A stretch of DNA of 64,000 bases from assembly GCA_023381415.1 (NCBI GenBank), contig JAMCUN010000012.1, positions 344 to 64,343 on the forward strand. Direction: 5' to 3'. Origin of the DNA: Thermoplasmatota archaeon (lineage in GTDB: Archaea; Thermoplasmatota; Thermoplasmata; Thermoplasmatales; GCA-001856825). A program made the position numbers and the translations under genes. Below the pieces are notes generated by a model, which had not been told where the DNA came from, made no database searches, and saw only the letters and a program-made list of their open reading frames with translations. Every line of letters starts with the position of its first letter. The stretch's first letter is position 1. Positions 5,442 through 44,315 of this stretch are shown here, in pieces.

Positions 5442-5531
5442 TTTAGCCGTTTTCCAGGCGTCAAGACCTCTATTTTTAGGAAACAGGTGGATTACGTTCC
5501 AGATTACTCGTATTGGATGCGTAAATGGTTC

Positions 5532-6903: not shown

Positions 6904-6925
6904 TTTAATTCCACCCTTTGTTTTA

Positions 6926-6958
6926 CCTAACTACATTAGGATATAACCTATTTATATA
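6926..6958 (-). promoter_or_regulatory. TATA box plus palindromic operator upstream of hydrolase-TetR operon
   Basis: CCTAA-ctaca-TTAGG palindrome at 6926-6940; minus-strand TATATAAATA at 6949-6958. Confidence 0.55.
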
Positions 6959-7370
6959 AGGTTTCTACTTCTTGTGTTCTCTTAAAATATAATGAAAAAG
7001 CTTTTCTGATCACCCTTTCATTACAGTGTCAGCTTAGGAGCCCTAGAGGTAGCAGTCTCTAATATTTTCCCCGTCAGGTTGTGCTTAAGATTGGCTGCAT
7101 AAGTATAGGAAAGCACTGCACAATTTGGCAATTTTTCTCTTGTTGCCGCGAACCACAAGTTTTCATGAATATTGACGTATACGAATATCGTATAATGTAT
7201 AGTCGACCATACTCCAAAGTGAGGCAGAGGAATATTCGTGGGGTAAATTGCGTGCAGAACCTAATGGCTCCAGAAACTCTTAATGTTACTATATTAGAAG
7301 TTTTCAAATACCATAATTAGGTGCGGCTGGAAAATGAAAAGATTAAAGGGATCAGATGTAAACTCCAAGA

Positions 7371-7760
7371 TTAACCAAGGTCAGACCTTTTCAAGGAACC
7401 AGTTATGTTACCTTTGTTCCACGATCTATTTTCGACCACCTGGAGAAAGGGTAGTAAACTCTCCCTGACGCTCTTTCCAAAATCGGTAAGCGAGTAAGTG
7501 ACTCCTGAATTCCCCTTGTTCCGCCTTATTAGATCGAACCCCTGAAGTTCCCTCAATCTTTTAGAGATCATCGTTGTACTGGAAGAAGGGATGTCCTTTA
7601 TTATCTCGTTGAAATTCTTTCTGTTGCCCCTATTGCCTATAACACCCAATATCATCATTGTATATTTCTTGCCTATGATGTCCAGAAATGGCAAGGATGG
7701 GTCGATGCAGATTGAAGTTCCCTGATATTCAAGCATGCACGCCTTGCTCTTATTTTTCAT
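7371..7760 (-). CDS. HxlR/DUF24 winged-helix regulator, divergent from mer genes
   Basis: CIDPSLPFLDIIGKKYTMMIL, ISKRLREL, YSLTDFG; start moved to ATG 7760 because the longer ORF overlaps the HMA gene. Confidence 0.85.
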   Translation of the reverse strand: MKNKSKACMLEYQGTSICIDPSLPFLDIIGKKYTMMILGVIGNRGNRKNFNEIIKDIPSSSTTMISKRLRELQGFDLIRRNKGNSGVTYSLTDFGKSVRESLLPFLQVVENRSWNKGNITGSLKRSDLG

Positions 7761-7805
7761 TCTTATATCTTCACTGTCTCTCACCGATCTCACTCCATCG
7801 TAATT

Positions 7806-7870
7806 TGAATCTAGTCTAGTAAAAAAAAGTTTACTTTGCAGTATTAATAATACTGACAATTCTAGATTCA
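7806..7870. promoter_or_regulatory. Nested palindromes in divergent hxlR/mer promoter (likely operator)
   Basis: CAGTATTA-a-TAATACTG at 7839-7855; outer TGAATCTAG (7806-7814) / CTAGATTCA (7862-7870). Confidence 0.6.
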
Positions 7871-8103
7871 TGGAAGAGAAAAGAGCAACTATTAGAGTAT
7901 ACGGAATGACATGTGACGATTGCGTCGAGAAGATCAGCCAGGAACTCAAGAAGCAGGAAGGAGTGATCAGTGCATACGTTTCTCTTAACGAAGGGACAGG
8001 TAGCGTGACGATTGATCCAGATAAAGTGAAGCCCGAGGATTTGCTGAAGAATCCAATATTTTCAAAGGGGTCACATTACAGAGCAATTCTCTTGGATCAG
8101 TGA
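7870..8103 (+). CDS. Heavy-metal-associated (HMA) metallochaperone
   Basis: GMTCDDC motif in a 77-aa protein; stop overlaps the merA ORF. Confidence 0.9.
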   Translation: MEEKRATIRVYGMTCDDCVEKISQELKKQEGVISAYVSLNEGTGSVTIDPDKVKPEDLLKNPIFSKGSHYRAILLDQ

Positions 8104-8108
8104 ACTCA

Positions 8109-9545
8109 ATGCCTGAAGTACAAAAATTTGATCTGGTAATACTTGGAAGAGGAGCGGCCGCTTTCTCAGCAGCAATTAAGGCATCGGAACTGAGCAACGG
8201 AGAGATGACAATTGCTATGGTAGGCACGGGGCCTTTAGGCGGGACTTGCGTGAACTTTGGATGCGTTCCATCCAAGTATCTGTTAGAGGGGTCTCATTCA
8301 GTTTTTTATCCAATGAACCCTAAGATGCAGGGGGTAAGCAAGACATCCGTAGGATTTGATTTTACGAAAATCATGGAAGGCCTGAGATCTTATGTTGCGA
8401 AGGTCAGGAATTCGAAATATGAAAATGTCATTGGGAACTATAGAAATGTAAAACTTCTTACGGGAAAGGGGAAATTCGTAGACAATAAAACAATATCGAT
8501 TTCAGACATGGATGAGAGAGAGATTGCATTGGTCTCAGGATCAAAAGTTATAATTGCTACCGGGTCCCGTCCAAAAGTGCCTAACATAGACGGACTTACA
8601 GAAACAGGTTTCCTGACAAGTGATACGATATGGGAAATCAATGCCCTTCCCGAATCGGTCGCAATAATAGGTGGAGGTGCAATAGGTCTTGAAATAGGCC
8701 AGGCACTCCTTCACTTTGGATCAAAGGTCACTGTAATCGAGAGCCTTAACTCCCTCCTACCGCAAACAGAACATGAAATAGGATATGCACTGAAAAAACA
8801 TCTTGAGGCGGAGGGCATGAAATTCGTAATGGGGGCCAGGGTAAATGAAGTATCAAAATCAGGGAGAATGAAGAAGGTTGAAGTGACTACCAATTTCGGT
8901 AGTGAGACTGTAGAAGTTCATGAAATCGTAGTCGCGACAGGAAGGCGACCTAACACAGAATATCTCAATCTTAAGGCTGCAGGGGTAGATACTGACCAAA
9001 ATGGTCTAATAAAAACTTCGCTAAAAATGCAAACTTCAGCACAAGGGATATTCGCTGCGGGAGACTGTGTTTCAAAGAAAATTTTTCTGGAGACACTAGC
9101 TGCGAGGGAAGGAGTGATTGCTGTAGAGAGCATGTTCGGAGAGGATGTCAGCATTGATTACAATTCAACTGCATGGGCAGTATTCACCAGCCCACAAGTT
9201 GCTGTTGTTGGAATGAAGGAGGATGAGTTTTCAGCAAGAAACGGATCCTGCTCTTGCAGGGTATTTTCTCTTGAGAACCTTACAAAGGCAAGCATAATGG
9301 GGGAAAAAGACGGGTTAATTAAGATGATAGTCAATCCCAAGAACAACAAGATAGTGGGGATGCATATAATGGCTCCAAACGCATCAGACATTATAACTGA
9401 AGGGGCATATTCGATAAAAAATGGCTACACGATAGACGACGTTATATCTACTAGCCACATATTTCCTTCCATATCAGAAGGGGTAAAACTTGCGGCCCAG
9501 TCATTCATAAGGGATATATCCAAGATGGCGTGCTGCGTAGAATAG
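8109..9545 (+). CDS. merA: Mercuric reductase
   Basis: GGTCVNFGCVPSK redox centre, GGGAIG NADPH site, C-terminal vicinal Cys (MACCVE); start ATG 8109 or GTG 8100. Confidence 0.95.
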   Translation: MPEVQKFDLVILGRGAAAFSAAIKASELSNGEMTIAMVGTGPLGGTCVNFGCVPSKYLLEGSHSVFYPMNPKMQGVSKTSVGFDFTKIMEGLRSYVAKVRNSKYENVIGNYRNVKLLTGKGKFVDNKTISISDMDEREIALVSGSKVIIATGSRPKVPNIDGLTETGFLTSDTIWEINALPESVAIIGGGAIGLEIGQALLHFGSKVTVIESLNSLLPQTEHEIGYALKKHLEAEGMKFVMGARVNEVSKSGRMKKVEVTTNFGSETVEVHEIVVATGRRPNTEYLNLKAAGVDTDQNGLIKTSLKMQTSAQGIFAAGDCVSKKIFLETLAAREGVIAVESMFGEDVSIDYNSTAWAVFTSPQVAVVGMKEDEFSARNGSCSCRVFSLENLTKASIMGEKDGLIKMIVNPKNNKIVGMHIMAPNASDIITEGAYSIKNGYTIDDVISTSHIFPSISEGVKLAAQSFIRDISKMACCVE

Positions 9546-9787
9546 TGAGACTATTGAGGCCCTAAGGAGTGACCAGTACGTTAGAATGGCACCTACTTTT
9601 CCTTCCCGCACAGTGCACACTGCGATACTGAGCTCAACTTCCACAAAACTTCGTTGCCTGCAGAATAGAAAATAGTAGGACTGGTTCAGACATTTGGTAC
9701 AACGGAAGGACATTTAAGCAATACCTAACATTCACATCTTAGTTGTCCGGGATAACTTTGACCCTAGATTTTACAAAAAGTCAATCC

Positions 9788-10228
9788 CTACCTTCCTTCA
9801 AATTTTTTGGAATGCTTGAGTTGATTCAACTTCATCGCTTCAAGGATGATTGCCTTTAGTGCGTCAAATTCTATGTCCTCGTCTTTATGTAAGTCAATCG
9901 CCCTTACTGACTTGCTGTCAAGACGAGCATTGAAAAATCCTTTTGGATCCCCAATCATAGCCCCTTTCGGGAAGGTCAACCTCACGGAGTTCTTAAGTAT
10001 GTTACAGAAACAAATAATGCCCATATAGGACCAAACAGGTATTCCGAGGGGGTTGCTCGGTTTCCTCCATTTGATTTCCTCTACGATTGATGGGTGAACG
10101 CTCTTGATATTTTCGCGCAGGTTTGACAGTTTCTTTCCTCTCCAGTCAGGAGTGCTCATCATTATTCTGTCAATTTGCTTTGACTCGGTTGACTCCTTGC
10201 TTCTTTGATTCACTTTTATTTTTTTCAT
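9788..10228 (-). CDS. DUF1801 (YdhG-like) protein
   Basis: DWRG..L, EEIKW..P.W, LTFPKGA..DP..FN pattern. Confidence 0.8.
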   Translation of the reverse strand: MKKIKVNQRSKESTESKQIDRIMMSTPDWRGKKLSNLRENIKSVHPSIVEEIKWRKPSNPLGIPVWSYMGIICFCNILKNSVRLTFPKGAMIGDPKGFFNARLDSKSVRAIDLHKDEDIEFDALKAIILEAMKLNQLKHSKKFEGR

Positions 10229-10341
10229 ATGCGATTCATTCGCTTGTGAACAGGGCTAATACTGAAGGTAGGTCTTCGCACCCTCTTAAAATCACCAACG
10301 CGCATTTTGGGAATCCCATTTTATTCGATTAATAGTATCAA

Positions 10342-10920
10342 TCATATCTTCCTGAGCACCTTGATCCTGTACTGCCACCTGCCTGACCCTTTTCCCATGA
10401 TCTCTTTCTCAGTTGTTGATAAAGACCTGAAAAATCTGTCATCAGAAGAGTTATAAGGGAAGAGATCTCCTACGACGAAATATCCATTACTTTTCAGGGC
10501 AGCAAATACGTTACGATATCCATCAAATCTCTTCTTTCCCATATTGTGAAAGACAAGGTTAGATATAATTAGGTCAAAATTCCAGTCAGTCGGAAGTGGA
10601 TACACAAGATTGTGCTTGAAAAACTTGACCCTGTCGTCTAATCCCAGGAGTTTCATATTCCTCTCCGCCCTTTCTATTGAGGATCCTGCCAGACTTCCAT
10701 CCTGAAATGTGTCAATACCAGTCACGCTAGAATATCGGAAAACGCGACCGACTATGGAAGATAGGAATCCTAATCCACATCCGGCATCAAGCACATTTAT
10801 CTTTGAATCAGGAGGAAATAGCGTGGGTAGAAGTGATGAGAATACATCTCTCAACTCCCCCCTCAGACTTTCAGATTCCTCCTTTGAGGCGTGATGGTAA
10901 GTCCCGAAATCCAATTTCAT
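10342..10920 (-). CDS. Class I SAM-dependent methyltransferase
   Basis: VLDAGCGLG, FDLIISNLVFHN, LKSNG. Confidence 0.88.
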   Translation of the reverse strand: MKLDFGTYHHASKEESESLRGELRDVFSSLLPTLFPPDSKINVLDAGCGLGFLSSIVGRVFRYSSVTGIDTFQDGSLAGSSIERAERNMKLLGLDDRVKFFKHNLVYPLPTDWNFDLIISNLVFHNMGKKRFDGYRNVFAALKSNGYFVVGDLFPYNSSDDRFFRSLSTTEKEIMGKGSGRWQYRIKVLRKI

Positions 10921-11017
10921 CTCTCTACAAATCAAGCCGATAATTTATATTTGACTAGTATCCTCCATCTAGGCAACAAAAAGTATTATTATTTATTCCC
11001 GGCTGAAATCTCAAACC

Positions 11018-30239: not shown

Positions 30240-31460
30240 TCACGCTGCCAGTGATTTCTCCAGATTTTTCTTCACAGTTGCAATGAACTCGTCAGAAGTT
30301 ACGTACTTAGAAACAGGAGGTTCAGACAGTTTAGCAATGTCCTGAGTCATTACCTTGTCCTTTTCTATCGTGTTTAGAACCGCATTTTCCAGTTTCTTGG
30401 AGAAATCAACTAGGTCATTCAGACCGTCAATTTCTCCTCTCCTCATAAGTCCTCTTGTCCAGGCAAATATCAGGGCCGTGGGGTTCGTGGATACCTTCTC
30501 CCCCTTGAGGTACCTGTAATAATGTCTCTGCACAGTCCCGTGTGCAGCTTCAGACAGGTAATATCCTTCCGGTGAAAATAGTTCAGATGTCATAAGTGCA
30601 AGTGAACCGAACGCAGTGGAGACCATATCAGAGAAAACATCTCCATCATAATTCTTGCAAGCCCAAAGGAAACCTCCCTCAGACCTGATTACTCTCGATA
30701 TTGCATCATCTATTAGGTAGTAGTAGTAATTTATTCCAAGTTTTGCAAATTCCTCCTTGTATTTAGTCTCATAGACTCTCCTGAATATTTCCTTAAAGTC
30801 AGCATCATAGACCTTAGATATTGTATCCTTGGCAGCGAACCAAAGGTCAGTTTTCTTCATAATAGCATACTTGAACGATGCGTCAGCGAAACCTTCTATT
30901 GACTTGTCTATATTGTAAATCCCCAGCAAGACACCTGGACCCTTGAGTTCCGGGTATTTCACTTTCTCATCTTTTCCGGATCTTCCCTTGTACGATATCT
31001 CCGCAGACCCAGGTTCATTGAATCTTATGGCAACTCCGTCGTAGATATCGCCGAAGGCGTGCCTCGCAACGATTATTGGTTTCTTCCAGTATCTCACTGC
31101 AGGTTGAACGGAGCTCACCATTATTGGAGCTCTGAATACTGTACCGTCAAGAATCTTCCTAATAGTGCCATTCGGGCTTGGCCATTCCTTCTTCAGGTTG
31201 TACTCCTTTACCCTCTCAGCATTAGGAGTGATGGTGGCGCACTTTACTCCTACACCCAATCTTTTGACTGCATTCGCAGCATCGAAGGTCACTCTGTCTT
31301 CAGTCTTGTCCCTGTTGCTAACGTGAAGGTCATAATATTCCGTCTTCAGGTTGACGTACGGTAACAGCAGGTTTTCCTTGACGGAAGACCAGAGGACTCT
31401 TGTCATCTCGTCACCGTCCATTTCAACTATAGGTCGACTCATTTCAATTTTACCAGTCAT
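30240..31460 (-). CDS. icd: NADP-dependent isocitrate dehydrogenase, type II
   Basis: DGDEMTR, KCATITP, SPNGTIR, NYDGDV.SD, EAAHGTVQRHY. Confidence 0.95.
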   Translation of the reverse strand: MTGKIEMSRPIVEMDGDEMTRVLWSSVKENLLLPYVNLKTEYYDLHVSNRDKTEDRVTFDAANAVKRLGVGVKCATITPNAERVKEYNLKKEWPSPNGTIRKILDGTVFRAPIMVSSVQPAVRYWKKPIIVARHAFGDIYDGVAIRFNEPGSAEISYKGRSGKDEKVKYPELKGPGVLLGIYNIDKSIEGFADASFKYAIMKKTDLWFAAKDTISKVYDADFKEIFRRVYETKYKEEFAKLGINYYYYLIDDAISRVIRSEGGFLWACKNYDGDVFSDMVSTAFGSLALMTSELFSPEGYYLSEAAHGTVQRHYYRYLKGEKVSTNPTALIFAWTRGLMRRGEIDGLNDLVDFSKKLENAVLNTIEKDKVMTQDIAKLSEPPVSKYVTSDEFIATVKKNLEKSLAA

Positions 31461-31535
31461 TTGATCACCGAAAACATCTCTTAATCCTCATTTTCTATTA
31501 ATATTTGGCTTCCAAGTGGATTGATGCTAGTTAAA

Positions 31536-32586
31536 TCATCTGAGCATCATATTACTTCTATTCACTTCCTTTATTGGAGCAAATACTGATAGTGCAATCT
31601 CCAAATTGAATTCTGCAAGAAGATTTCTAAAAATCGTTTAACGCCTGCCTAACCTGCTAAAGGTAGTACGTAAGCATACAGCCTTCCAATACGCACATTG
31701 TATGCTCAAAGAGAAATGACTTTTAAGGGATCTTCGCTCAAGCTTATGCCGCATCAATCAAGACGCAAATTTAATAATCCTTTGAAGACGTTATTCTATA
31801 AAGCGAGCACATAGAAGATATGGCCCGATCCACCACGATTCGATACTGTGACTGCATCTACCCCTGAAGCAACTTCTAGTTTAACGTCTTCAGGATGACT
31901 GTTGCCATTAACAATCAGGAGGAGTTTTGTAAAGACCTGTTTCTCTTATTCCTTCCCATAAGAAAGAAGGATTAACGTTTACTTTCAGATATTCAAGAAT
32001 TGCTGGCTCCATGTCACTCTTGGAATCTTACTTCAATCTTTAAGAAAAACAGGATCAGTTGAAAAATTTATGATCCCCTCACCTTTCATGAAGGAAGATA
32101 GGGATTCTTCAAATCTGTCTATCTCCATCCAAGCATTGATCTATCCACTGTTATCACTATCGCATTGTTACCTAAATTTTCGGCAGGTTTGACCATATTT
32201 CTCATTACCGCTAAGTAGTTCCCTGGATAAAGCTGAAAACAACGCTCGGAGTCTCCTATTAGAGCCCGACATTCTTCTATGCTAAGGGAAGAGATGGTGC
32301 TCAGGACGAACTGGATTCCATCTCTATAGCGGCTTTGGCACTACCCTTTGGGCTTCACGTGAATTATCGATTGTAGCAGATAGAAGCAAGAGTAAATGGT
32401 GTTGGAAACTTCCTTCCAAACAGTGAGATTTCTAAGGCTTTTTCGTTTACATTTCTTAGATGTGTAGGCCATGCGACACAACTTTTGAACGCTTAATTGT
32501 TGTTCCTACAAGTAATCTCTTCTTTAAGTGATATCGGTAGGCTGCTCTTCGACCCAAAAACATCATAAGTTGCACTTTCATCCCAT
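31536..32586 (-). pseudogene. Degraded FMN-dependent alpha-hydroxy-acid oxidase (lactate 2-monooxygenase-like)
   Basis: Manual minus-strand translation gives collinear fragments with stops and frameshifts: LRNV..SLFGRKFPTP, FVLST..SIEE, FQLY, AIVITVD..LGWR*.DL..YLP, GEG..F.TDPVF, HPED..SGVDAVTVSNRGG, IGRLYAY.L.LAG*AGV, LAEF. Confidence 0.88.
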
Positions 32587-32875
32587 AATTTTCCTTGATA
32601 AGTTACCGTTGATTAATATTTTAATCTAATGAGTCAAACGAGCCTCTAGAATTTGGAAATATGCTGTAAAGAATGCACAGGAAACCCGCGGAGGAAGTTG
32701 TCTGCACAGTCTATCAATTAACAATGATTTACTGAAAGCAATACCATATGAAGCGTAAAACTCAAAGGGTTCTGAATGTGAGTCATTCATGAGTAGGTAT
32801 ATAACAAACCACGAAACTGGTTGTCAAATTCACTACCGAATAATCTTTATTGTGTTTGTTTGTTTACCACTGGAT

Positions 32876-33667
32876 GTGACAGAGGTGATAGAGTACGGTT
32901 TGATGAGCATTAGAGGGGAGTCACGTCAAAGAGATGAAGACAGTGCACTGTGTATGGCTAACATTCAAGGAATCAGCGAGGGGAAGGACAAAGTTGTATC
33001 ATTCGCGGCCGTAGCAGACGGAATGGGAAGTGGAGAAAGGGGCGAGATTGCAAGTAAAATTGCAGTTAACACCTTAGGAAAAAATATAATGGGTTTCATT
33101 TTAGAAGAAGAAATATCGAGTTCTAAAATAACGAGATTATTCCTAAACAGCGTTAGAGAAGCAAATCAGATGATATCACAGTACGCAAGAAGGAATGACA
33201 TCTCGTCTATCGGGACAACTCTTACTGCTGCACTCATAGAATCCGACAAGGTTCACGTTGCAAACATTGGAGATTCTAGAACGTATCTTATGTCTAAATA
33301 CGGAAATATAAAGAATAGAACTAAGGACCATTCGTATGTTCAGCAACTTGTGGATAGTGGCCTTCTAAAAGATTCAGAAGTAAGAAAACATCCCAGGAGG
33401 AATATAGTTACAAAAATAATGGACGGTGGAGAAGGCGTAGAACCTGATCTCTACGAATGGAAAATAGTCAAGAACGAATATGTACTGCTGTGTTGCGATG
33501 GACTCTGGGAGGCTTTGACTGACGAGGCAATTGAAAAGATAGTATTGTCGGGAGGTTCTCCACAAGAAATAGTGAGGAGTATGGTAAAGAGAGCAAATGA
33601 AATAGATGGGTCTGATAACATAACAGCGATAATTATGAAGAAAATTGAAGGAATTGAAGAAGCGTGA
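32876..33667 (+). CDS. PP2C/PPM family Ser/Thr protein phosphatase
   Basis: RDEDS, VADGMG, NIGDSRTY, DHS, HPRRNIVT, LLCCDGLW, GSDNIT; metal-binding Asps intact; start uncertain (ORF opens 32789). Confidence 0.95.
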   Translation: MTEVIEYGLMSIRGESRQRDEDSALCMANIQGISEGKDKVVSFAAVADGMGSGERGEIASKIAVNTLGKNIMGFILEEEISSSKITRLFLNSVREANQMISQYARRNDISSIGTTLTAALIESDKVHVANIGDSRTYLMSKYGNIKNRTKDHSYVQQLVDSGLLKDSEVRKHPRRNIVTKIMDGGEGVEPDLYEWKIVKNEYVLLCCDGLWEALTDEAIEKIVLSGGSPQEIVRSMVKRANEIDGSDNITAIIMKKIEGIEEA

Positions 33668-33759
33668 ATTGAACTCCAACCGTTCATTTCAAAAGCCCAA
33701 ACCAGCCAAATGATTTTATAAGCATTAGACGGCCTGACCATCGCCTTCTATTTCGTTCT

Positions 33760-34593
33760 TTATTGAATATTGTAGCCATAAAACGATATTGAACAGATCT
33801 TTCTAAATCCAATTTTTTCGCATATCGGTGCAGATGTCTCCTCAAGCGCATGAATAATGAGGAACTCAAGACCGTTATACTTTGCATCTTCTAATCTCTT
33901 CCAAACCATGCTTTTATATATACCACGCCCTCTAAAGGATGGGAGTACAGCTGAGCCATCAAGTATTCCATACTTTCCTTCTCTATCCATCTCCATCACT
34001 GCGAACCCCACTTTGCCCCCTGTTTCTTTATCATAAGCGATATACGTTTTTATCTGCCCATTATAACGCTTCGTGGCATTTACCGCTTTCATTGTTTGTA
34101 ATATAGCATTTGCAGAGCCTTTATTCATGTCACTTCCGAATGATTTGACTATCAAGTCTAGATTTTCCTCCAGCTCATCTAAGGTTACCTCTTTGACGGA
34201 AGAAGTATGGCTTTCTCTGATGTTATCAGAAGATAATTCCATCACCATTCCGGCCTCTTGAATATCTGTCATTTGATGGAAGCCGTTATTTTTAAGGCGG
34301 TCTCCGAGATCAGAAGGAGTACTATCCGGGCCAACTGCCCAGCTAAAAGATTTACCGTATTTCTTGAACTCTTGTATTACGATCTGGATCATTTCGTCCG
34401 CATTATCTTGAGAGAAGCGAGCAAGACCAACGTGGTTAACTCTCTCTGAGTTTATAGGAGAAACATATCCTTTCAGGTGCGGAATATGCAATCTCTCAAA
34501 GCCCATGTTCTTAAAAAATTCATCATCTAATCCTTCCCTGTCCAAAATCGCATTAGTCCTTTCTATAGTTTCAATTATGTGGTGCTTTTCCAT
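33760..34593 (-). CDS. GNAT family acetyltransferase
   Basis: C-terminal VLPSFRGRGIY acetyl-CoA motif and KIGF. Confidence 0.88.
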   Translation of the reverse strand: MEKHHIIETIERTNAILDREGLDDEFFKNMGFERLHIPHLKGYVSPINSERVNHVGLARFSQDNADEMIQIVIQEFKKYGKSFSWAVGPDSTPSDLGDRLKNNGFHQMTDIQEAGMVMELSSDNIRESHTSSVKEVTLDELEENLDLIVKSFGSDMNKGSANAILQTMKAVNATKRYNGQIKTYIAYDKETGGKVGFAVMEMDREGKYGILDGSAVLPSFRGRGIYKSMVWKRLEDAKYNGLEFLIIHALEETSAPICEKIGFRKICSISFYGYNIQ

Positions 34594-34781
34594 AGTTTAG
34601 CAGTAGATAATACACTTAAACTTTTTTTTGTCCATTCCAATCTTCCTGTAGATTTGAACTACTTAAGAAGCGAGATTAAGCCTTAATTTTAAAATCCAGG
34701 CAGAAAGTGATGATTATTACGTAGAAATTCTAATCTCCTTAAACAACAAGATTTAACTAAGATTATTATTATAATGTTATT

Positions 34782-35546
34782 ATGCTGAATGGATCGAAAG
34801 TAGCTGTTATTACTGGATCAGGAAGAGGAATCGGAAGAGAAATTTCCATAAGACTAGCCAAGGAAGGTTTCAAAATTGTGATCAATGTTAAGAAACGTTT
34901 GGAGGAGGCCCAGGAAACATTGAAGGAGGTCTCAATGTATAGTGAAGGATTAATTGTTCAAGCAGACGTTTCGACTAGGGATGGTTGTAAAAAGATTGCA
35001 GAAGAGACTAGGAAAAGTTTTGGAAGATGCGATCTTCTTGTCAACAATGCCGGTCTTGCAATAGCTATGCCATTCATGGAGTGCGATGATAAACTTATAG
35101 AGAAGATAGTTTCAACTGACTTCCTTTCAGTGATATACTGCACACAGGAGATTGTGAAGATAATGCCTGAAGGAAGTTCAATAGTAATGATGACATCCCT
35201 ATCTGGGATCAAACCAATGAAATATTTATCGCTCTACGGTAGCCTCAAAGCTGCAGTTATTAGATTAACAGAATACCTGGCACTGGAGTTAAGTCCAAAC
35301 AAGATCAGAGTAAACTCGATTGCTCCGTCTGTGGTTAGGACAAAGATGGGAGACAGCCTCTTAAATTTTCTGAACTTGAAGGAAGAAGAATATGCCGACA
35401 AGTACACTCTGACTGGAAGCGTAATTTTTCCTAAAGAAATAGCAGCTACGGTTGTGTACCTCCTAGAATCACCTAACATCAATGGACAGACTCTAATAAT
35501 AGACTCAGGCCAATCGCTAATGCTGAATTTTCCTGGGCAGCAGTGA
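34782..35546 (+). CDS. Short-chain dehydrogenase/reductase
   Basis: TGSGRGIG, NNAG, YGSLK, NSIAP. Confidence 0.93.
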   Translation: MLNGSKVAVITGSGRGIGREISIRLAKEGFKIVINVKKRLEEAQETLKEVSMYSEGLIVQADVSTRDGCKKIAEETRKSFGRCDLLVNNAGLAIAMPFMECDDKLIEKIVSTDFLSVIYCTQEIVKIMPEGSSIVMMTSLSGIKPMKYLSLYGSLKAAVIRLTEYLALELSPNKIRVNSIAPSVVRTKMGDSLLNFLNLKEEEYADKYTLTGSVIFPKEIAATVVYLLESPNINGQTLIIDSGQSLMLNFPGQQ

Positions 35547-35885
35547 TTTTTTCTCTTTGACAAACAGGATTGGTCATCCCTTCGTTTGGTTATTTTATCC
35601 GTTACTGGGGTTATTCAAGACCAGAAGAATAGGCAGGAATGTCTAAGAAAGTTGAGGGCCGACTGGGCAATAAGCCAAAAATTACTGACCTGTAAATTTT
35701 CTACGCAATACTTAATTGAAATCTGGAGGCAATCCATAAATGTATTGAGTCGCACTTAGAAGTAATGACCTAACTCAATATTCCAAATACTTAGATTCTT
35801 TCTAATCTATCGAATGGAGTGTTCAGTAAGTAAGTTCATGGAACCTGATTTAGCAACTCCTTCTACGGGTGCTTCTGGGCAAATA

Positions 35886-38800
35886 TCAGGCATTAAGAAG
35901 TCCCTTCAATCTGAGACACTTTTCTGCGAAAGGAACGCAGTTCAGTCTGTCAAATATATCGTAAGCGACAGAAAGTGCATTGTCACTTCCTTCCCAGTCA
36001 TTATCCTTTTGAAGCAGTCTCGCAAGTTCATAAGAAAGTTGTGCGCCGAATAATACGTAACCGGTTTTTAGAAAATAATCTCTAGCCTCTCTCATTGAAA
36101 CAACTGCCTTCTCGATGTCCCCAAATTTTTCCTCATAATAGGACTCCGCTGCGTTCCTGTACTGAGATATCCACTCTTCTCTGAACCTTGAAGAAAAATC
36201 GTTCAGGACTTTTAGGTATCTTTCAGCATCTTCCTTTTTACCCAACAAAGCGCTTGCAATTGATGAGTAATATGACATATTCACGTAAGCATCGAAAACT
36301 TCTGTATTTAATATCTTATTCTCTATTTTTTCTATGATAGAATGAGCATAAGATACTGCCTCCTCTAATTTGTTCTGCTCTACGAGGCTCATCGCTTTGT
36401 ACGGAGAAGAGAAACTGAGGAACTGAGCAGATGAAGCCTTGTCAACTTCATTAAATCCATTCATTGCTATATTCCAGTTCCCCTTGAAGGCTTCTATAAC
36501 AGATTTTATTAATGTAGAAACCAAACTCACATGATTGCCTTTAGATTCATCCACTTCATTGTTTTCTAACAGTTTCTTAAGTTGTTCCCATCTACCACCG
36601 GGAAGAAGGGAGAGTAGACCCCTTTCATATTCAATTACTTCCCTAGTTCTTTTCGTGCAGAGGTCAAGATTAAATGCCAGTCCCTTAGAGAATGCTGCTT
36701 CCGTCCCCATAAGGTCGTGTTTAAGGAACACGTAAACATTAGCATAGTGGTCATAGAACGTTAGTGCTACGTTCTGAAGTTCAACATTATTTGGGTCTTC
36801 GGCAGTGCTTCTAATGACCCATCTTTCAGCATCCTGATTGATCTTCAATATGTAATCTATGTCACTTCTTTCCTTGATTTCAATCAAGTTTCCAGACTGT
36901 AACCTGAGTGCGATTGTGTAGATGTCGTTTACTCCTGTCTCAGTAACATACTCGAGTACCTTTCCGTTTACCTCCCTCGCCTCTTTGAATTCGGACCTGT
37001 ACCAATGGGCACCCGAGATAGAATAGGCAAGTCTTTGCAGATAGTTTTTAGAGGCAGGGTCCGTCAAATTCTTTTCTAGGAAGTCAGTTGCATACTTTAA
37101 CCAGTAGTCCTGCCTTTGATCACTTCTTGCTACCATCCCTGAGAGGCATTTGGCCATCATCTCAACATCGTTCAGGGACTCAAAGATCCTTATTGCCTGT
37201 TCTATGCTTTCAAAATCTGTGATTCCAGAGAACAATCCATAATAATAGGTCTTGTATAAGATCATAGCCTTCTGCTTTTTCCCTTCATTGCTCTTGGAAT
37301 AATTTGGAATCATATCCATTATCTCAAGGTCTGACCTGTATTGATCGGCCGCCCTATTGAACTGAAATGAAGAAGCCCACAGGTCGCCTAGGCTTATTCC
37401 GAACTTCAACGCGTTCAGGTAGTCTCCTCCTTCAAGCGTGTGGTATGCAAGATCAGGCAATACATCCTTATCTTCATCTCCGTATGTTGACAGCATTATT
37501 TCTGCTATCCTGAGATGAAGTTTCTTCTTCCTTAACATTGAAATTGAATTAAAGAAGAAGTCGTGCACTTGTGGATTTTCGAAATATAATCTAAACTGTC
37601 CAGGTCTTGTTTTCTTTTCCAGAAGAATACGGCCCTTCTCTAGTTTTTCTATTTCGTTATAAAGTGTATCACTATCTACCGAATCCATGAGTTTTTCGAG
37701 TATCTCCAGATCAAACTCTTGTCCTATAACGGACGCAACTGAAAGTATTTCCTTACTTGTTTCCCCAACGCTTGACAACCTTTCCCTTATCAGGCCTCTA
37801 ACGGATGAAGGAATTCCTATTTCATTTATGGGTTTCCTATCCCAGCTGCCTGAATCCTTACGGAAAATCATTCTCTTTTCTATGAGCAGTTTTAGGACTT
37901 CTTCGACGTAGAATGGATTTCCTTCGGTCCTTGAATAAATGAAATTTGAAAACTCAACGCTTATGTTGCTTTTTTTCTCCCCAAGATTCCTTGCTATCAG
38001 CTCTGCTGTCTGATCTTTATCAAGATTGTGCAGTCTCAAAGATTGGACTTTCCTGCTTCCCATTATCTTCTCGAGTAACGGATTTTCCTGATCGTCAACT
38101 GGAACGGAGGTCATAACTAGAAGCATTTTGATATTCTTGATCCCATCAAGGAGAGAATTTATTATATTCAAAGATCCAGAATCTGCAAAATTGATATCTT
38201 CAATTTCTAAGAGAAATGGGGTCTCTCTTCCAATGTTCCTGAATATTTCATATATGCCATCGAGGAATCTCACTGCTGCATCTTCAGGATTCTGGGTAAA
38301 CAGGTCATTTACTCTTCCCAGTTTACCAACAAGGTCAGGAAGGAGTTTAATGGCAACGTCACCATAGTTTCCGCACACCTTGAACATCAACTGTTGGGGC
38401 ATTTCCGAGAAAATTTCTCTCAATAATTCTGAGAATATGTAATTTGGACTCGAGGCCCTATTTTCCCTGCCCTTTGCTATAATTACCTTCAATCCCCTCA
38501 GGAGTCCATAATCCATGAGGTCTTGCACCATTCTCGTCTTACCCTGACCGTGATCTCCTACAACGATGATAGCCTTACCTTCGCCTAACATAGCAGAATC
38601 GAGGGCCGCCCTTAGCGTTGACATCTCTTCCTCCAATCCTATCAGCTGAGAGTTCCCTATGTTGGTTCTCGAGGTGGAGGCAGATATAGACGAATTGCTA
38701 TAAGAAGACATTGTGGATCTAACCTCGGTTCCTTGGGTATTCGTCAAGTCTTCTATGTCCTTAACTGCACCTATAAGTTTACCAGCATCCCGAAACCTTT

Positions 38801-39578
38801 CTTGAGGGTTCTTCCTAAGAAGTTTCATTATGATGGCATCTAATTGTTTTGGAATGTTGGAATTTATTGAGGAAGGGGATAGCGGATAATCATGGATGTG
38901 GCTATATATTAGCTGAATACTGTCCCTAGATTCAAACGGTGGATGGCCTGTTGACATAAAGTAGATAACGCAGCCTAAGGAATAAAGATCGGATCTGGCA
39001 TCCACGATGTTACCCAGAGCACCTTCGGGGGATATGTACGCAGGAGTTCCCACTATAGTTCCCGCGTGTGTCAGCATCGGTGCGTCGAAAGCCTTGGCTA
39101 GACCAAAATCCATTATCTTAGGTGTTCCATCCTTGGTCATCATTATATTTTCTGGCTTTATGTCTCTGTGAAATATCCCTCTGTTATGCGCATATTCCAG
39201 AGCATTTGCTACTGATTTCGTTATCCTTAGAACCTCTGTAACAGATAGTCTTCCGTGATTCCTAAAAACGTATTCCTGGAGGTTCTCACCATCCACGAAT
39301 TCCATTACCATGTAGAATTTGTTCCCCTCCCTCTGCATATCGTATATAGCAACTATGTTAGGGTGCAACATCTTGGCTGTAGTTTCAGCCTCCCTCAGGA
39401 TCCTGTTGTAAGAGTCCCCCTCTGTGACTTCCCCCTTTATGAGTTTTATGGCCACTATCCGGTTAAGATTATTGTCAAGACACTTGTATACTATGCCCTT
39501 TCCTCCCTCACCTAGTTTCTTCAGAATTTTATATCTCCCATTTTGGAAGCTTTCAGGAGTGTCAGAAATTCCTTTCAC
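35886..39578 (-). CDS. Hanks Ser/Thr kinase - STAND/AAA NTPase - TPR-like protein (paralogue 1)
   Basis: GEGGKG, VAIK, HRDIKPEN, DFG, GTPAYISPE; Walker A GDHGQGKT, Walker B IEDINFAD, GNPFY, IPSSVR; helical C-terminus; start uncertain (GTG 39578, ORF opens 39653). Confidence 0.92.
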   Translation of the reverse strand: MKGISDTPESFQNGRYKILKKLGEGGKGIVYKCLDNNLNRIVAIKLIKGEVTEGDSYNRILREAETTAKMLHPNIVAIYDMQREGNKFYMVMEFVDGENLQEYVFRNHGRLSVTEVLRITKSVANALEYAHNRGIFHRDIKPENIMMTKDGTPKIMDFGLAKAFDAPMLTHAGTIVGTPAYISPEGALGNIVDARSDLYSLGCVIYFMSTGHPPFESRDSIQLIYSHIHDYPLSPSSINSNIPKQLDAIIMKLLRKNPQERFRDAGKLIGAVKDIEDLTNTQGTEVRSTMSSYSNSSISASTSRTNIGNSQLIGLEEEMSTLRAALDSAMLGEGKAIIVVGDHGQGKTRMVQDLMDYGLLRGLKVIIAKGRENRASSPNYIFSELLREIFSEMPQQLMFKVCGNYGDVAIKLLPDLVGKLGRVNDLFTQNPEDAAVRFLDGIYEIFRNIGRETPFLLEIEDINFADSGSLNIINSLLDGIKNIKMLLVMTSVPVDDQENPLLEKIMGSRKVQSLRLHNLDKDQTAELIARNLGEKKSNISVEFSNFIYSRTEGNPFYVEEVLKLLIEKRMIFRKDSGSWDRKPINEIGIPSSVRGLIRERLSSVGETSKEILSVASVIGQEFDLEILEKLMDSVDSDTLYNEIEKLEKGRILLEKKTRPGQFRLYFENPQVHDFFFNSISMLRKKKLHLRIAEIMLSTYGDEDKDVLPDLAYHTLEGGDYLNALKFGISLGDLWASSFQFNRAADQYRSDLEIMDMIPNYSKSNEGKKQKAMILYKTYYYGLFSGITDFESIEQAIRIFESLNDVEMMAKCLSGMVARSDQRQDYWLKYATDFLEKNLTDPASKNYLQRLAYSISGAHWYRSEFKEAREVNGKVLEYVTETGVNDIYTIALRLQSGNLIEIKERSDIDYILKINQDAERWVIRSTAEDPNNVELQNVALTFYDHYANVYVFLKHDLMGTEAAFSKGLAFNLDLCTKRTREVIEYERGLLSLLPGGRWEQLKKLLENNEVDESKGNHVSLVSTLIKSVIEAFKGNWNIAMNGFNEVDKASSAQFLSFSSPYKAMSLVEQNKLEEAVSYAHSIIEKIENKILNTEVFDAYVNMSYYSSIASALLGKKEDAERYLKVLNDFSSRFREEWISQYRNAAESYYEEKFGDIEKAVVSMREARDYFLKTGYVLFGAQLSYELARLLQKDNDWEGSDNALSVAYDIFDRLNCVPFAEKCLRLKGLLNA

Positions 39579-39708
39579 CTCAACTAAATATCTTAAGGGT
39601 GTTAAATTTATAAATATTTCGTCATCTCGTCTTGCTGGATACGAAGTGTTCATAGGGTTATCAGAGATATCCTCAAAGTGCTTATGCCTGAATCTCCGGT
39701 CCTTCAGA

Positions 39709-39746
39709 ACAATAGGTCTAATTTTACGTTAATGGAGACCTATTGT
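39709..39746 (-). terminator. Hairpin immediately after the GYD gene
   Basis: ACAATAGGTCT (39709-39719) / AGACCTATTGT (39736-39746), 11-bp perfect inverted repeat, 16-nt loop; function inferred. Confidence 0.5.
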
Positions 39747-39754
39747 AAGGTAAG

Positions 39755-40045
39755 TTACTTAATGTGCTTTTTACTGACTTTTTGGTAGAGATTATCGTCT
39801 ATGACTTGCATGGTTATGACATCAATCCATGGTTTAACAGTATGTAAATACTCCAAATACAATTCTTCAGACTTATCCGTTCCATCACTTTCAACAATAA
39901 CAACAGAGTCATACGGGCCATATGTTCTAAAAATTTCAATCTTAACCCCTGATTTGGTAGCTTTGCTTACGATTTTCAAAGCCCTGTCGTTCTCCTCTTT
40001 GGTTGGCAATCTTTTTAGTTTGTCTAACATTACAACTTTATTCAT
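39755..40045 (-). CDS. GYD-domain-like small protein
   Basis: 96 aa with GVKI..TYGPYDSVVIVES family signature. Confidence 0.75.
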   Translation of the reverse strand: MNKVVMLDKLKRLPTKEENDRALKIVSKATKSGVKIEIFRTYGPYDSVVIVESDGTDKSEELYLEYLHTVKPWIDVITMQVIDDNLYQKVSKKHIK

Positions 40046-40137
40046 GCTAGTTTTTTAGGAAAAATCTTATTTAAAATCCATGTAAATATAAAGGCTAAAC
40101 CCACGAATGGAGAACCAGACAGTATTCACTATCCTCC

Positions 40138-43100
40138 TTACGCCTTTAGAAGTTCCATCAAGCTTAGGCACTTTCTAACATAGCTTCCACAATCCAGTCT
40201 AGTAAAGACCTCCAGTGCATTTGCAACGTTCTTAGAGCTCTCACTCCAATTACCCATTTTCTGATAAAATTTTGCAAGTTCAAGTGATGTCGTCGCATAC
40301 CTAAGCACATACCCGGATGATTTAAAGAATGAAACTACAGAAGTCATCTCATCTATTGCTTTACTCAAATCTCCGAACTTTGCCTCGAACACGGATTCCG
40401 CCTGTTTGACGAAGGACCATATCCATTCTTCGGTAAAATATGATGCAATATCCTTGAGACTAGATAGTATTTCTTCGGCTCTCTTCTTATTGTCTATTGA
40501 TGAATAGATCTCAACACCCGCACTTGGGACTACGATTCTTGCAAAAAAGGTATCCATTGTTCTAGGCAACCTTCCTAGCATTTCGAGAGTTTCTTCCATG
40601 TAGGTTACCGATTTCTCTGGCATTCCGGCCTCCAAGTACATCCTTGGTATGAGGTCGTTAGCGTGACTTAGGAATTGATAGGAGAGGCCTTCCATCCTGG
40701 ACCTCAGCTGATCAACCTCTTCCTCATTCACTCCTCGATAGAGAGAAATTGCTGACTTACTAAGAGATACCATTGCGACAAGATGATTATAAAAACGATC
40801 ATTTGGATTCAAAAATGGGGATATACGCTCGTCAATGAGCTTCATAGCTTCCTCCCATCTTCCTGCATTTATGAGTACCATCTGTATTAGCTCGGAGACG
40901 TAAACCATATTTAAGCCAAGGCCCATCTTCTTTCCATATGACTCCATGCCCTTTCTGAACGCATTTTCTGCTGAGGCAAGGTCCATCTTTATTTCCACCA
41001 TGAAATTCGCATAAAAGTCGTAATAATTCAGTGCTGAGCTGCTAATATCTGTTAAATTGTTGGTCCTCCCACTCCTAAGACCCTCTTCCAATCTCTCTGA
41101 GTTCTTCACAACTGAAATTATCCAGTCAATATCACTCTGCTTCTCTATGTCTAGCAGAATTGTGCCCATGAAATAGTCATTTATCGCTTGAAACTCCCAG
41201 TCAAGGTTCCTTGATTTTATGTAGTTGTCGGTCCACTTGTAGTATTTTCTTGCATCATCTATCCGATTCACATACCAGTATCTTGCAGTGACCATGATTC
41301 CAAGAGCAGCAAGGTCAGCCCCCAGATCTTTGTTATCTTCATTATCTTTCAAATAGGATTCTGCTTTCATCATTATTTCTGTCAGAGGCAGATAGAAAAC
41401 ACCAAATTTCAGCATTGTAGCTTGGAGCTTCAAATCTCCGATCAATTCTGCCGCATTATAGCCCGTTCTCCAGTAGTGTTCAAACTTGTCAAGAGGGCTA
41501 TTTCTCGCGGAGTTGCATATCTTAGAGCATACTTCACCAATTTCCTTTGCATAAGATTCGTCCTTATCCTTTACAGAAACATTCTCAAGGATATCGAACG
41601 CCTCTATGTAACGTTGCAGAGCCTCAGAATACTCGTAAGATTGAAACCATAAGTCTCCAAGTTTCACAAGGTATGGAACTGCCTTGATTTGTTCTCCACC
41701 CTCAATGAAGTGGTATGCCAGATCCCCGTACGAAGATTGGTTAAATATATCTCCTTTTTTCTCCATTATGTTAGCTAACTTCTGATGTAGTCTCCTTTTT
41801 TTCAGCATGCTGAACTGGTCAAAGAAGTAGTAGTAGATTTGAGGATTCTGGAAGAATAGACGTATGTTTCCTGATGTTGTCTTTCTTTCCCCCAGTAGAC
41901 TTTTCTTTATTAGTTTCTCAAGGGAATCGTAAAATCTATCAGAATTATCCTCAAGAAGTTCAGATAGAATTTCCGAATCAAATTCCATGCCTATGACTGC
42001 AGCATTTGAAAGGATATTCGAACTGAAGTCATCTACACCAGCTAAACTCTCTCTTATAATTCCTACGAGAGATGCAGGGATTCCCGAATTTTCTATTTGC
42101 TTTCTTTCCCAGCTACCCGTCTCGCTCTTGTAGATTACTTTCTTATCAATTAAGAATTTCAAGACTTCTTCAATGTACAGCGGATTTCCAGCAGTCCTCT
42201 TGTATATGAATGAAAGGAATTCATCAGAGATGTTTTTCATTGGTTCCGAAAGATAAGATGATATCAATCTTCTAGTGTCATCCTTGTCCAACGGGTGAAG
42301 GATTATGTGATAAAACTTCCTCGTGGACAGAAGTTCTTCTTGCACTGAATCTCCCGTCGGTGAGCTAACCCCGCCAACAGTAACAACTAGGAGGGCCCTG
42401 GAACTTTCTATAGTTTCTGACAAGGCCTTCATTATTAAAACAGAAGTTGAATCCGCAAACTGGGCATCTTCTACTATCACACATATTGGGCCTTCTGCCG
42501 AGATGTTTCCCAATATGGCAATTACTCCTTCTTGAAACCTTAGCTTTAGGTAATCAGGGTCTTGATTAGGAGGGTAAGCAACTTTTCCTAATTTTACCTC
42601 GAGATCAGGAAGTAGTTTTATTGCAACGTCGGAGTAATCACCGCACACCTTGTATATTAGCGCTTGAGACGCCATATAGAGGTACTCTCTCATTATCTCG
42701 TTTAACACATAATGAGGCGTACTTCTCTTGCTATCTCTGCACTTTACTGTGATCGTTCTCATACCTCTTAGGACAGAGTAATCTCTTAACTCGGATGATA
42801 GTCTAGTTTTCCCAAGACCTGCGTCCCCTGTTATCAAGGCGGCTTTACCGTTTCCCATTAAGGAACTGTCTGCGAGGTTCCTAAGATCTCTAATCTGATC
42901 ATCCAATCCTATTAGAGCCCCTTTGTATGTTTGAATAGTAATCGTTTTAGAATTTGTCGTTTCTTTAGGAAATTGTGAGTGAACTTTGTCATCTGGCGTA
43001 AGAATGGATGTGAGTGAGGATAGAACATCTGCCAATTCAGATGCGTCACTGTATCTTTCGTCAGGATTCTTGCTCAGAAGTTTCATGACTACAGAGTCAA

Positions 43101-43836
43101 CCTGAACAGGAAGGTGGGGATTGACCTTACTCGGGGGCGGAGGAATATCGTGAATATGACTGTAAATTAATTTGAGACTGTCCTCTCCCTTAAAGGGTGG
43201 AACCCCCGTCAGCATCTGGTAAAGGACGCAACCTAGGGAGTAAAGGTCTGACCTTGCGTCGGCTTCCTTCCCCAGTGCACATTCTGGTGCTAAGTATGCA
43301 GGAGTCCCTATGATAGTTCCTGCGTGAGTCAATCCGGGACTGTCAAAAGATTTGGCAAGCCCAAAATCCATAAGTTTTGGATTCTTTTCCTTCGAAATCA
43401 TTATGTTTTCTGGCTTGATATCTCTATGGAGTATCCCCTTACCATGAGCGTAGCTAAGTGCATCGCATATCTTTCTAGTTATCCTTACTGCCTCTCCCAA
43501 AGTCAAAGAACCTCCTAACTCTGAAATGTATGAATCTAAAGTTTTTCCATCAACAAACTCTATGACCATTATGAACCGCTCTCCCTCCTTCAAGAGGTCG
43601 TATATTGCCATGATGCCGGGATGAGAAAGTTTGGCAGTAGTCTGAGCTTCCCTCATGAGTCGTGAAAACGTATCACTGTCCATCGACTCTCCCTTAATTA
43701 GTTTCAGGGCAACAATGCGTCCTAGGCTGTTGTCCTGGCACTTGAAAACTATTCCCTTCCCCCCTTCTCCGAGTTTCTTTATTATAGAGTATCTCCCATT
43801 CTGGAAGGAAGTAAGGTCATCATATCCTTCAGGCAA
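40138..43836 (-). CDS. Hanks Ser/Thr kinase - STAND/AAA NTPase - TPR-like protein (paralogue 2)
   Basis: GEGGKG, VALK, HRDIKPEN, DFG, GTPAYLAPE; Walker A GDAGLGKT, Walker B VEDAQFAD, GNPLY, LAYHF; helical C-terminus. Confidence 0.92.
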   Translation of the reverse strand: MPEGYDDLTSFQNGRYSIIKKLGEGGKGIVFKCQDNSLGRIVALKLIKGESMDSDTFSRLMREAQTTAKLSHPGIMAIYDLLKEGERFIMVIEFVDGKTLDSYISELGGSLTLGEAVRITRKICDALSYAHGKGILHRDIKPENIMISKEKNPKLMDFGLAKSFDSPGLTHAGTIIGTPAYLAPECALGKEADARSDLYSLGCVLYQMLTGVPPFKGEDSLKLIYSHIHDIPPPPSKVNPHLPVQVDSVVMKLLSKNPDERYSDASELADVLSSLTSILTPDDKVHSQFPKETTNSKTITIQTYKGALIGLDDQIRDLRNLADSSLMGNGKAALITGDAGLGKTRLSSELRDYSVLRGMRTITVKCRDSKRSTPHYVLNEIMREYLYMASQALIYKVCGDYSDVAIKLLPDLEVKLGKVAYPPNQDPDYLKLRFQEGVIAILGNISAEGPICVIVEDAQFADSTSVLIMKALSETIESSRALLVVTVGGVSSPTGDSVQEELLSTRKFYHIILHPLDKDDTRRLISSYLSEPMKNISDEFLSFIYKRTAGNPLYIEEVLKFLIDKKVIYKSETGSWERKQIENSGIPASLVGIIRESLAGVDDFSSNILSNAAVIGMEFDSEILSELLEDNSDRFYDSLEKLIKKSLLGERKTTSGNIRLFFQNPQIYYYFFDQFSMLKKRRLHQKLANIMEKKGDIFNQSSYGDLAYHFIEGGEQIKAVPYLVKLGDLWFQSYEYSEALQRYIEAFDILENVSVKDKDESYAKEIGEVCSKICNSARNSPLDKFEHYWRTGYNAAELIGDLKLQATMLKFGVFYLPLTEIMMKAESYLKDNEDNKDLGADLAALGIMVTARYWYVNRIDDARKYYKWTDNYIKSRNLDWEFQAINDYFMGTILLDIEKQSDIDWIISVVKNSERLEEGLRSGRTNNLTDISSSALNYYDFYANFMVEIKMDLASAENAFRKGMESYGKKMGLGLNMVYVSELIQMVLINAGRWEEAMKLIDERISPFLNPNDRFYNHLVAMVSLSKSAISLYRGVNEEEVDQLRSRMEGLSYQFLSHANDLIPRMYLEAGMPEKSVTYMEETLEMLGRLPRTMDTFFARIVVPSAGVEIYSSIDNKKRAEEILSSLKDIASYFTEEWIWSFVKQAESVFEAKFGDLSKAIDEMTSVVSFFKSSGYVLRYATTSLELAKFYQKMGNWSESSKNVANALEVFTRLDCGSYVRKCLSLMELLKA

Positions 43837-44218
43837 GTGAACACACCTTGTTTATTTAATTTCTAAATCTGATTAATACTTTTAGGTGTGCCTTATTCTA
43901 TTAATGCAATGACAACGTCCATCTCTTTCCCCAAACCTAGACATTACGAAACTGTCCAAGGAACCTATGATGCATTTAGCAGAGGTATTAGAATACTGCA
44001 ATGAATACACATTTTCTAATGAAACGCAAGATGCTCGCTTAGCTAAAGACCCGTCCAATGTTAATCCTTGATGGGCGATTAATATTGTGTATCAACGTAG
44101 GCCGCTCAGAGAAAGGGGATTGCAATCGTAACAGGCTGACTTTTTAGAATGGGTGTCTTTGTAGAAGGAAGAAGCGAAAATAATTGCCCGTCCTCAAAAA
44201 GATCAAGTTTCGAACGTA

Positions 44219-44315
44219 CGCCGGGGGGGAGATTTGAACTCCCGATCTCTTGCGAGAACAAGCTTTCTGTATAACTGTTCCAGGCTTGCGCCTTACCGGT
44301 CTGGGCCACCCCGGC
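44219..44315 (-). tRNA. tRNA-Ser(GGA) with ~13-nt intron at 37/38
   Basis: GCCGGGG/CCCCGGC acceptor stem, CAAGC-CT-GGA-A[cagttatacagaa]A-GCTTG anticodon arm, long variable arm, GTTCAAATC, G discriminator. Confidence 0.93.

Follow-up and report, generated by a model that had tools for sequence, protein, structure and literature searches.

Two kinase-STAND genes in a strain-variable island of a Thermoplasmatales archaeon, members of an archaeal clade predicted to lack two usual switch residues

The window analysed here is a stretch of 64,000 nucleotides of contig JAMCUN010000012.1 from a Thermoplasmatales archaeon (assembly GCA_023381415.1, 81% complete and designated G000 below; other G numbers denote compared genomes). 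It contains, at the 3' end of a serine tRNA gene, an accessory island of about 12.7 kb with six genes, two of which, K1 and K2, encode proteins that join a Hanks-type Ser/Thr kinase to a STAND nucleoside triphosphatase (NTPase) core and a TPR-like sensor. A first-pass annotation of this DNA had proposed that the two kinases, a small GYD-like protein and a PP2C phosphatase make up an NLR-like immunity or phospho-signalling system. We find that K1 and K2 are members of a patchily distributed archaeal clade, and that the island around them is present or absent as a unit between strains. The features concerned are the following, with positions counted in the window.

31513..44212, accessory island of about 12.7 kb, between idh and the 3' end of the tRNA-Ser(GGA) gene
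32876-33667, plus strand, PP2C/PPM phosphatase (Pfam match above cut-off; start uncertain by a few codons)
33760-34593, minus strand, GNAT acetyltransferase (Pfam match)
34782-35546, plus strand, short-chain dehydrogenase (SDR), island cargo (domain match)
35886-39578, minus strand, K2, 1230 amino acids, subfamily B, with the same domain layout as K1
39755-40045, minus strand, GYD-like protein, 96 amino acids, small alpha/beta, of a narrow Thermoplasmata subfamily, between K1 and K2
40138-43836, minus strand, K1, 1232 amino acids, subfamily A: Hanks kinase ~13-275, AAA_16 STAND core ~309-750, TPR-like sensor
44219-44315, minus strand, tRNA-Ser(GGA) with a 13-nucleotide intron, its 3' end facing and bordering the island

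All the genes named by the first-pass annotation are real, but it omitted the GNAT and SDR genes that stand between PP2C and K2. Its description of K1 and K2 as two co-oriented genes of about 1230 codons with intact kinase and P-loop motifs was accurate. Both proteins keep every kinase motif (Gly loop, VAxK lysine, alphaC Glu, HRDIKPEN, DFG and APE/SPE), and the HRD loop is intact in 17/17 full-length members of their clade; they also keep the NTPase motifs Walker A (K343 in K1), Walker B (D457 in K1) and GNP (residues 550-552 in K1). Pfam Pkinase recognizes the two kinases at E 3e-58 and 1e-59, and AAA_16 at E 1e-15 and 3e-14, with bit scores of 59 and 54 (cut-off 32.6). An AlphaFold model of K1 residues 309-1232 (pLDDT 85, pTM 0.75) consists of a STAND core and an all-helical solenoid, and its top Foldseek matches are Apaf-1, PH0952, Avs3 and MalT; the model and the fold matches bear on architecture only. 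Pfam, model and Foldseek thus agree with the effector-STAND-TPR architecture assigned earlier, and K1 and K2 have the parts of STAND NTPases: a P-loop nucleotide-binding domain (NBD), a helical domain with GxP, a winged helix and a repeat sensor. The K2 start is a GTG that follows GAGGTG and agrees with the N-termini of its orthologues, the longest open reading frame extending to 39653. K2 is 64-65% identical to its orthologues in G012, G014, G019 and G117, and K1 and K2 are 40% identical to each other over 1247 columns. A recent tandem duplication is ruled out by their membership of different subfamilies, and their sequences appear to have diverged long ago.

The fusion of a kinase to a STAND core is an architecture already known from SWACOS/AAA_16 and PknK-like proteins. 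The SWACOS clade of STAND NTPases was reportedly defined by Leipe, Koonin and Aravind in 2004. With AAA_16 scores above the Pfam cut-off and a fused Ser/Thr kinase, K1 and K2 would be of this kind; their clade has the GKTR Walker A, the ED/DD..AD Walker B, GNP..EE, the N-terminal Ser/Thr kinase and the C-terminal TPR in common with it, and sister proteins of the clade carry adenylate cyclase domains. The name SWACOS is used in PMC8195603, PMC13236601 and PMC13581612. What appears to be new is a monophyletic archaeal subclade that crosses families and swaps its TPR sensors; the sensor-I Arg, the Walker B Trp and the winged-helix His are all missing from it, and its members have a conserved ELLKA-type end at the C-terminus. 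Our literature search, most subscription papers being outside its reach, turned up no paper on this family, nor did a search of seven source-data supplements of PMC13581612 give a match to it.

Several characterized proteins resemble K1 and K2 in part. The mycobacterial kinase-STAND protein PknK, a regulator of growth and transcription that forms homodimers according to PMC9045387, likewise fuses a Hanks kinase to a STAND module, the likeness being one of description, and a member of the archaeal family is entered as PknK in one NCBI record; unlike PknK, the archaeal genes have no transcription-factor substrate linked to them. The best curated model for the kinase and STAND parts, matched by 20/20 members, is TIGR03903 (TOMM kinase/cyclase fusion), but the score is 247 against a cut-off of 706, and the clade has neither the cyclase domain nor a TOMM cluster. 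MalT (PDB 8BOB) and the archaeal Pyrococcus protein PH0952 (6MFV) have the STAND core, arm and TPR sensor fold in common with K1; their effector is instead a DNA-binding domain, their contact between the winged-helix His and ADP is kept, and identity is only ~12-14%.

The STAND core described by the first-pass annotation stands as regards Walker A, Walker B and GNP, but not as regards the switch, where two usual residues are absent. All 22 clade members retain the Walker A Lys, the Walker B Asp and GNP. By sequence alignment only, which is how the residues were equated, the sensor-I Arg occurs in its motif window in 1/22 members (and is shifted there) against 64/65 wider relatives, and the winged-helix His in 0/22 against 54/65, with N or D in its place in all 22; the N-terminal GR Arg is found in 3/22 and 61/65, respectively. 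The sensor-I Arg, which follows strand 4, has a role in ATP sensing. Since the His is replaced by Asp in all seven wider relatives listed as well (six of them archaeal), this change is old. The loss of the Arg is not unique, since two cyclase-type STANDs have lost it too; the kinase-STANDs of other Thermoplasmata (G220 and G499) keep it. In resting STANDs the winged-helix His hydrogen-bonds the ADP beta-phosphate, as stated in PMC10427625 and PMC6468293. With both this His and the sensor-I Arg missing, the switch of K1 and K2 is likely to be non-standard. Conservation of the ELLKA-type C-terminus extends beyond the clade to G220, G499 and one Bathyarchaeia kinase-STAND, although the sensor that precedes it is very variable.

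Kinase-STAND genes, full-length or cut by a contig end, are present in 15/169 Thermoplasmatales genomes from 10/37 genera, a patchy distribution that excludes core genes, and in one genome outside the order (G241). Three metagenome loci and one broken locus were added to the family set, and Picrophilus oshimae AAT42720.1 is also a member. In a FastTree of 87 STAND cores, which has no outgroup root and holds only loci fetched in this analysis, the 22 clade sequences form one group (support 100), whose neighbors are Bathyarchaeia and other Thermoplasmata proteins (96), inside the bacterial AAA_16 radiation. The B-type copies of G012 and G117, which belong to different families, are 87% identical while PolB is 50% identical, and a comparison involving G019 gives 89% against 74% for PolB. 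Such figures point to lateral transfer of B-type copies between families; the G117 contig measures only 10 kb, so that misbinning is possible. A scan of viral contigs revealed no relative of the family.

Some members and relatives depart from the common layout. It is suggested that C-type genes often decay or split: one (G157:C1, L059:2605-6319) is broken between its kinase and STAND parts, and P0127, P0132 and P0133 are C-type pieces of 342 and 943 amino acids in one cluster. Three Bathyarchaeia AAA_16 STAND-TPR proteins (L102:1809-5357, L117:7944-11453 and L106:7953-10811) have a C-terminal KaiC-like ATPase or DUF362 domain and no N-terminal effector.

The G+C content of the island that holds K1 and K2 is 0.403, against 0.466 for the genome, and none of 371 12-kb windows of the genome has so low a value, which agrees with the AT-richer block noted earlier at a tRNA 3' end. 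In alignments with the empty sites of G003 and G013, where only about 337 bp separate nadE from idh, homology stops at 31512-31522 and restarts at 44213. Seventeen congeners have a nadE match, and the tRNA site was inspected in 16 of them: none of these 16 sites carries a kinase, STAND, GYD or PP2C gene, and 11 of them run straight to idh or a Nudix gene. In two sequencing runs from two studies (X3 and X9), a contig fuses position 31616 to position 43959 and skips all six genes; its flanking contigs differ from the window by 16-23 letters per 1.4-1.6 kb, and the junction therefore comes from a close, co-occurring strain without the island. All six genes are thus present or absent jointly between strains, and the island is an accessory block gained or lost by strains as a unit, which makes the locus variable, as had been supposed. 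No integrase was seen in the island, nor was an attachment (att) repeat of at least 12 bases found.

The island was found in 12 DNA runs from three studies (mine tailings, drainage and sediment), 10 of which were flagged as possible source samples, and none of the runs listed that carry it is an RNA run. An assembly artefact is unlikely, as long contigs from the three studies hold the island without differences; these contigs break only near 39136-39165, where their pieces overlap, and the runs may include the source sample. A sigma-70 promoter scan, with a model unsuited to archaea, gave chance level (19 against 18.7 expected). The left end of the island (31513-32875) is a stretch of about 1.4 kb without an open reading frame of at least 70 codons or detected homology. 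The adjoining idh gene (window 30240-31460) was matched in only 7/18 congeners at E 1e-60, and at the tRNA-Ser site only in G003 and G013. With its intron search off, ARAGORN miscalls the tRNA-Ser(GGA) gene (44219-44315) as tRNA-Cys.

We read K1 and K2 as accessory signaling kinases, acting as cytoplasmic one-component receptors, and give this reading an even chance of being correct; their ligand is probably metabolic or related to stress. By analogy with MalT, PH0952 and Apaf-1, the TPR sensor would hold the STAND core autoinhibited at rest, and a ligand binding to the sensor would release it; released cores would then oligomerize and cluster the kinase domains, which could trans-autophosphorylate their Thr-containing activation loop and so switch phosphorylation on. 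The GYD-like protein is likely an optional regulator or the product of a co-traveling gene. The 81% complete assembly yielded no Hanks kinase besides K1 and K2 and no PP2C besides that of the island, and for this reason alone the phosphatase may reset them. According to PMC5007285, the PPM phosphatase of Thermoplasma volcanium is Mn-dependent and of broad specificity, two-component systems are missing from three Thermoplasmatales genomes surveyed, and the characterized archaeal Hanks kinases come mainly from Sulfolobales.

Kinase signaling in the Thermoplasmatales is almost unstudied. A receptor-like sensor coupled directly to a kinase, in a genome with few other signaling genes, should make ligand and substrates tractable, and P. 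oshimae, a named and cultured acidophile, has both a family member and a GYD homologue. The natural loss of two STAND switch residues offers a test of how general the ADP/ATP switch model is. Were the trigger viral, the proteins would be archaeal NLR-like immune receptors with a kinase effector, of which none is described in the literature searched.

That K1 and K2 are antiviral or anti-mobile-element receptors, whose TPR sensor would bind a virus protein and whose activated kinase would then stop growth, is unlikely but far from negligible; different subfamilies and swapped sensors would then cover different invaders. Several observations fit immune receptors too, and in that measure weigh against a signaling role. 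The effector-STAND-TPR layout is that of Avs3 (PDB 8DGC), among the top structural matches of K1. Patchy spread, transfer across families, strain-level presence or absence, sensor replacement and the pairing of two different subfamilies in three genomes are all typical features of immune receptors as well, and the distance between one GYD gene with a kinase stub and cas2/cas1/cas4 is about 7 kb. The known antiphage effectors include kinases: many kinase models in PADLOC, PD-T4-6 and MADS Mad6 among them, match the kinase domain of K1 and K2, and mad8 (MADS) gives weak partial matches in 6/20 members (best E 1e-8). Change is faster in the first half of the TPR; no other folded region of the B-type cluster varies as much, and 15 of its columns have at least three states. 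The C-type proteins of G012 and G014 are mosaics, 85-100% identical over residues 1-540 and 32-50% over 781-1200, with saturated synonymous divergence in the sensor region; their sensors remain sisters in the TPR tree (85), so that the replacement came from a related allele. In Lee et al. (10.64898/2026.01.04.697583), STAND clades with and without a defence role are interspersed.

Against an antiviral role, none of 20 STAND+TPR regions matched an Avs model of PADLOC-DB 2.0.0, a library that predates the newer Avs families of 2026, and the best 25 of the 35-36 PADLOC matches of full-length K1 and K2 are to the kinase domain only. Nor was a defence system found among 129 open reading frames within 4.5 kb of 19 loci (PADLOC, E 1e-5): the nine matches are all generic domains, among them ArsR helix-turn-helix, methyltransferase, HNH and NYN, some identified from context. 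Pfam analysis of 82 proteins, mostly neighbors, gave P450s, esterases, SDRs, amidohydrolases, tRNA synthetases and eIF5A. The weight of this survey is limited by its small sample: were the true rate 10%, zero defence neighbors in 18 full-length or contig-cut loci would have a chance of about 15%. Several of the contigs also end near the gene. Kinase, adenylate cyclase, KaiC and DUF362 are the domains found in the nearest archaeal relatives, and none of the six scanned has a nuclease, TIR or SIR2 domain; additional relatives from the Thermoplasmata resemble kinases or cyclases. The ratio of non-synonymous to synonymous substitution rates is below 1 in all measurable regions (kinase and NBD 0.02-0.12, TPR 0.10-0.40), and sensors vary by at most about 1% within three within-species clusters of 5-10 distinct sequences each. 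The immune role put forward by the first-pass annotation thus gained no positive support from PADLOC models or neighbors. A fuller version, in which mobile, sensor-swapping and often paired NLR-like immune kinases with a rewired switch would arrest the cell through phosphorylation when triggered by a virus protein, with GYD as a brake and the captured PP2C to reverse the arrest, is doubtful, and a little less probable again.

It is improbable that the STAND core is a mere nucleotide-binding scaffold without an ADP/ATP switch, the kinase being basally active or controlled by the TPR or by an inhibitor such as GYD (compare MalY-MalT). The near-complete loss of the sensor-I Arg, winged-helix His and GR Arg described above, and the contact that the His makes with ADP in resting STANDs, would fit a scaffold, but Walker A, Walker B and GNP are invariant in the clade and the core is under purifying selection. 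The replacement of the His is, in addition, old, and the residues were equated by sequence alignment.

The remaining reading is that of a single dedicated, conserved module in which GYD would be a substrate or adaptor of the two kinases and PP2C would serve to reset them. We hold it to be very improbable: the joint presence or absence of the six genes, the GYD genes beside kinase-STANDs, and the syntenic congeners G003 and G013, which have neither a PP2C match nor a Hanks kinase above the Pfam cut-off, so that kinases and phosphatase likely arrived together, all favor it, but the neighborhoods of the other genomes do not.

These neighborhoods were read for all 14 other kinase-STAND genomes of the order. 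In most cases the copy is solitary, with metabolic or housekeeping genes around it. A B and a C copy converge in both G012 and G014, and in G019 a B copy faces a TPR remnant of 273 amino acids. GYD adjoins a full-length kinase-STAND in 2/15 genomes and a stub in one more; these three cases belong to one genus and show two arrangements only. The gene lies between K1 and K2 in G000, divergent from the C-type copy in G014, and unlinked in G030. Some linkage to GYD does exist, as a close GYD is found in 5/169 genomes, four of which also carry a kinase-STAND, but the search found no GYD in 11/15 kinase-STAND genomes. GYD is present and no kinase-STAND was found in G131 and, outside the order, in G187, and G241 has a kinase-STAND without GYD. 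The earlier proposal of linkage fails for PP2C, which is adjacent in 1/15 genomes, G000 itself; in G167 it is on the kinase-STAND contig, yet 22 kb off, and in G030 (99% complete) two queries did not find it. Among 80 distant-relative loci listed from a GTDB scan, none had a GYD or PP2C match with the narrow profiles used. GYD is therefore an optional companion that recurs, PP2C is a neighbor in a single case, and the four-gene set of kinases, GYD and PP2C is not a conserved unit.

The island PP2C is intact, as stated previously, with a Pfam match above cut-off and its metal-binding Asp motifs present, the last of which, GSDNIT, was read from the translation. PP2C occurs in 58/169 genomes; in the 29 loci that were read, it comes directly after a membrane kinase 22 times and lies at a conserved genus-specific site seven times. 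The island copy groups (support 100/99) with that of G005, which ends an operon of vWA, zinc-ribbon-FHA, membrane Hanks kinase and PP2C genes (L217:7789-13061; G005:C9), an arrangement that we take to be reminiscent of the Sulfolobus ArnA/ArnB network. No vWA, FHA or membrane kinase gene was detected in G000 (81% complete), nor was a remnant operon or decayed kinase seen upstream of PP2C, between idh and the phosphatase. Another kinase operon is the likely source from which the island acquired its PP2C. The solo-PP2C site of the seven congeners is empty in G000 (G000:C22 10612-10986). A co-occurrence of kinase-STAND and PP2C across genomes (10/15 against 48/154) was dropped, as further divergent PP2Cs exist in G117 and G130 and related genomes are not independent.

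The 96-codon gene between the kinases exists as the first-pass annotation had it, but its match to Pfam GYD (PF08734; E 0.012, 16.1 bits) falls below the gathering cut-off of 31.4. Three of five aligned homologues match GYD and two match the Lrp/AsnC ligand domain, and its look-alikes in the Atlas are GYD proteins, with scores below 0.9; by profile and model it appears to be a distant GYD relative. Its invariant Thr15 was considered as a phosphosite; under the helix-cap rule, a helix cap fits equally well.

Among other loci of the family, the GYD gene of G012 is divergent from a C-type kinase stub of 119 amino acids, between IS110 transposases in a tRNA-Pro-adjacent region (L028:5889-8828, L060; G012:C4 ~408,000-425,000, the locus close to the cas genes). 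Directly upstream of the B-type kinase-STAND stands a P450 gene, whole in G012 (L021:10700-11893) and reduced to a piece of 75 amino acids in G019 (L025:7073-7300); the upstream region in G012 also holds an esterase and two homologues of the island GNAT (52% and 35%). In G241:C6 (L241:2405-12160), genes for cell-wall scavenging (NlpC/P60, epimerase-like enolase, SIS protein, NamZ and AnmK) form a cluster that ends beside the kinase-STAND of this clade. Elsewhere in the window, positions 5442-10935 form a second stretch of lower G+C content after tRNA-Ala(CGC), with genes for a TetR-like regulator, a hydrolase, an HxlR regulator, a disulphide oxidoreductase (possibly mercuric reductase), a DUF1801 protein and a methyltransferase.

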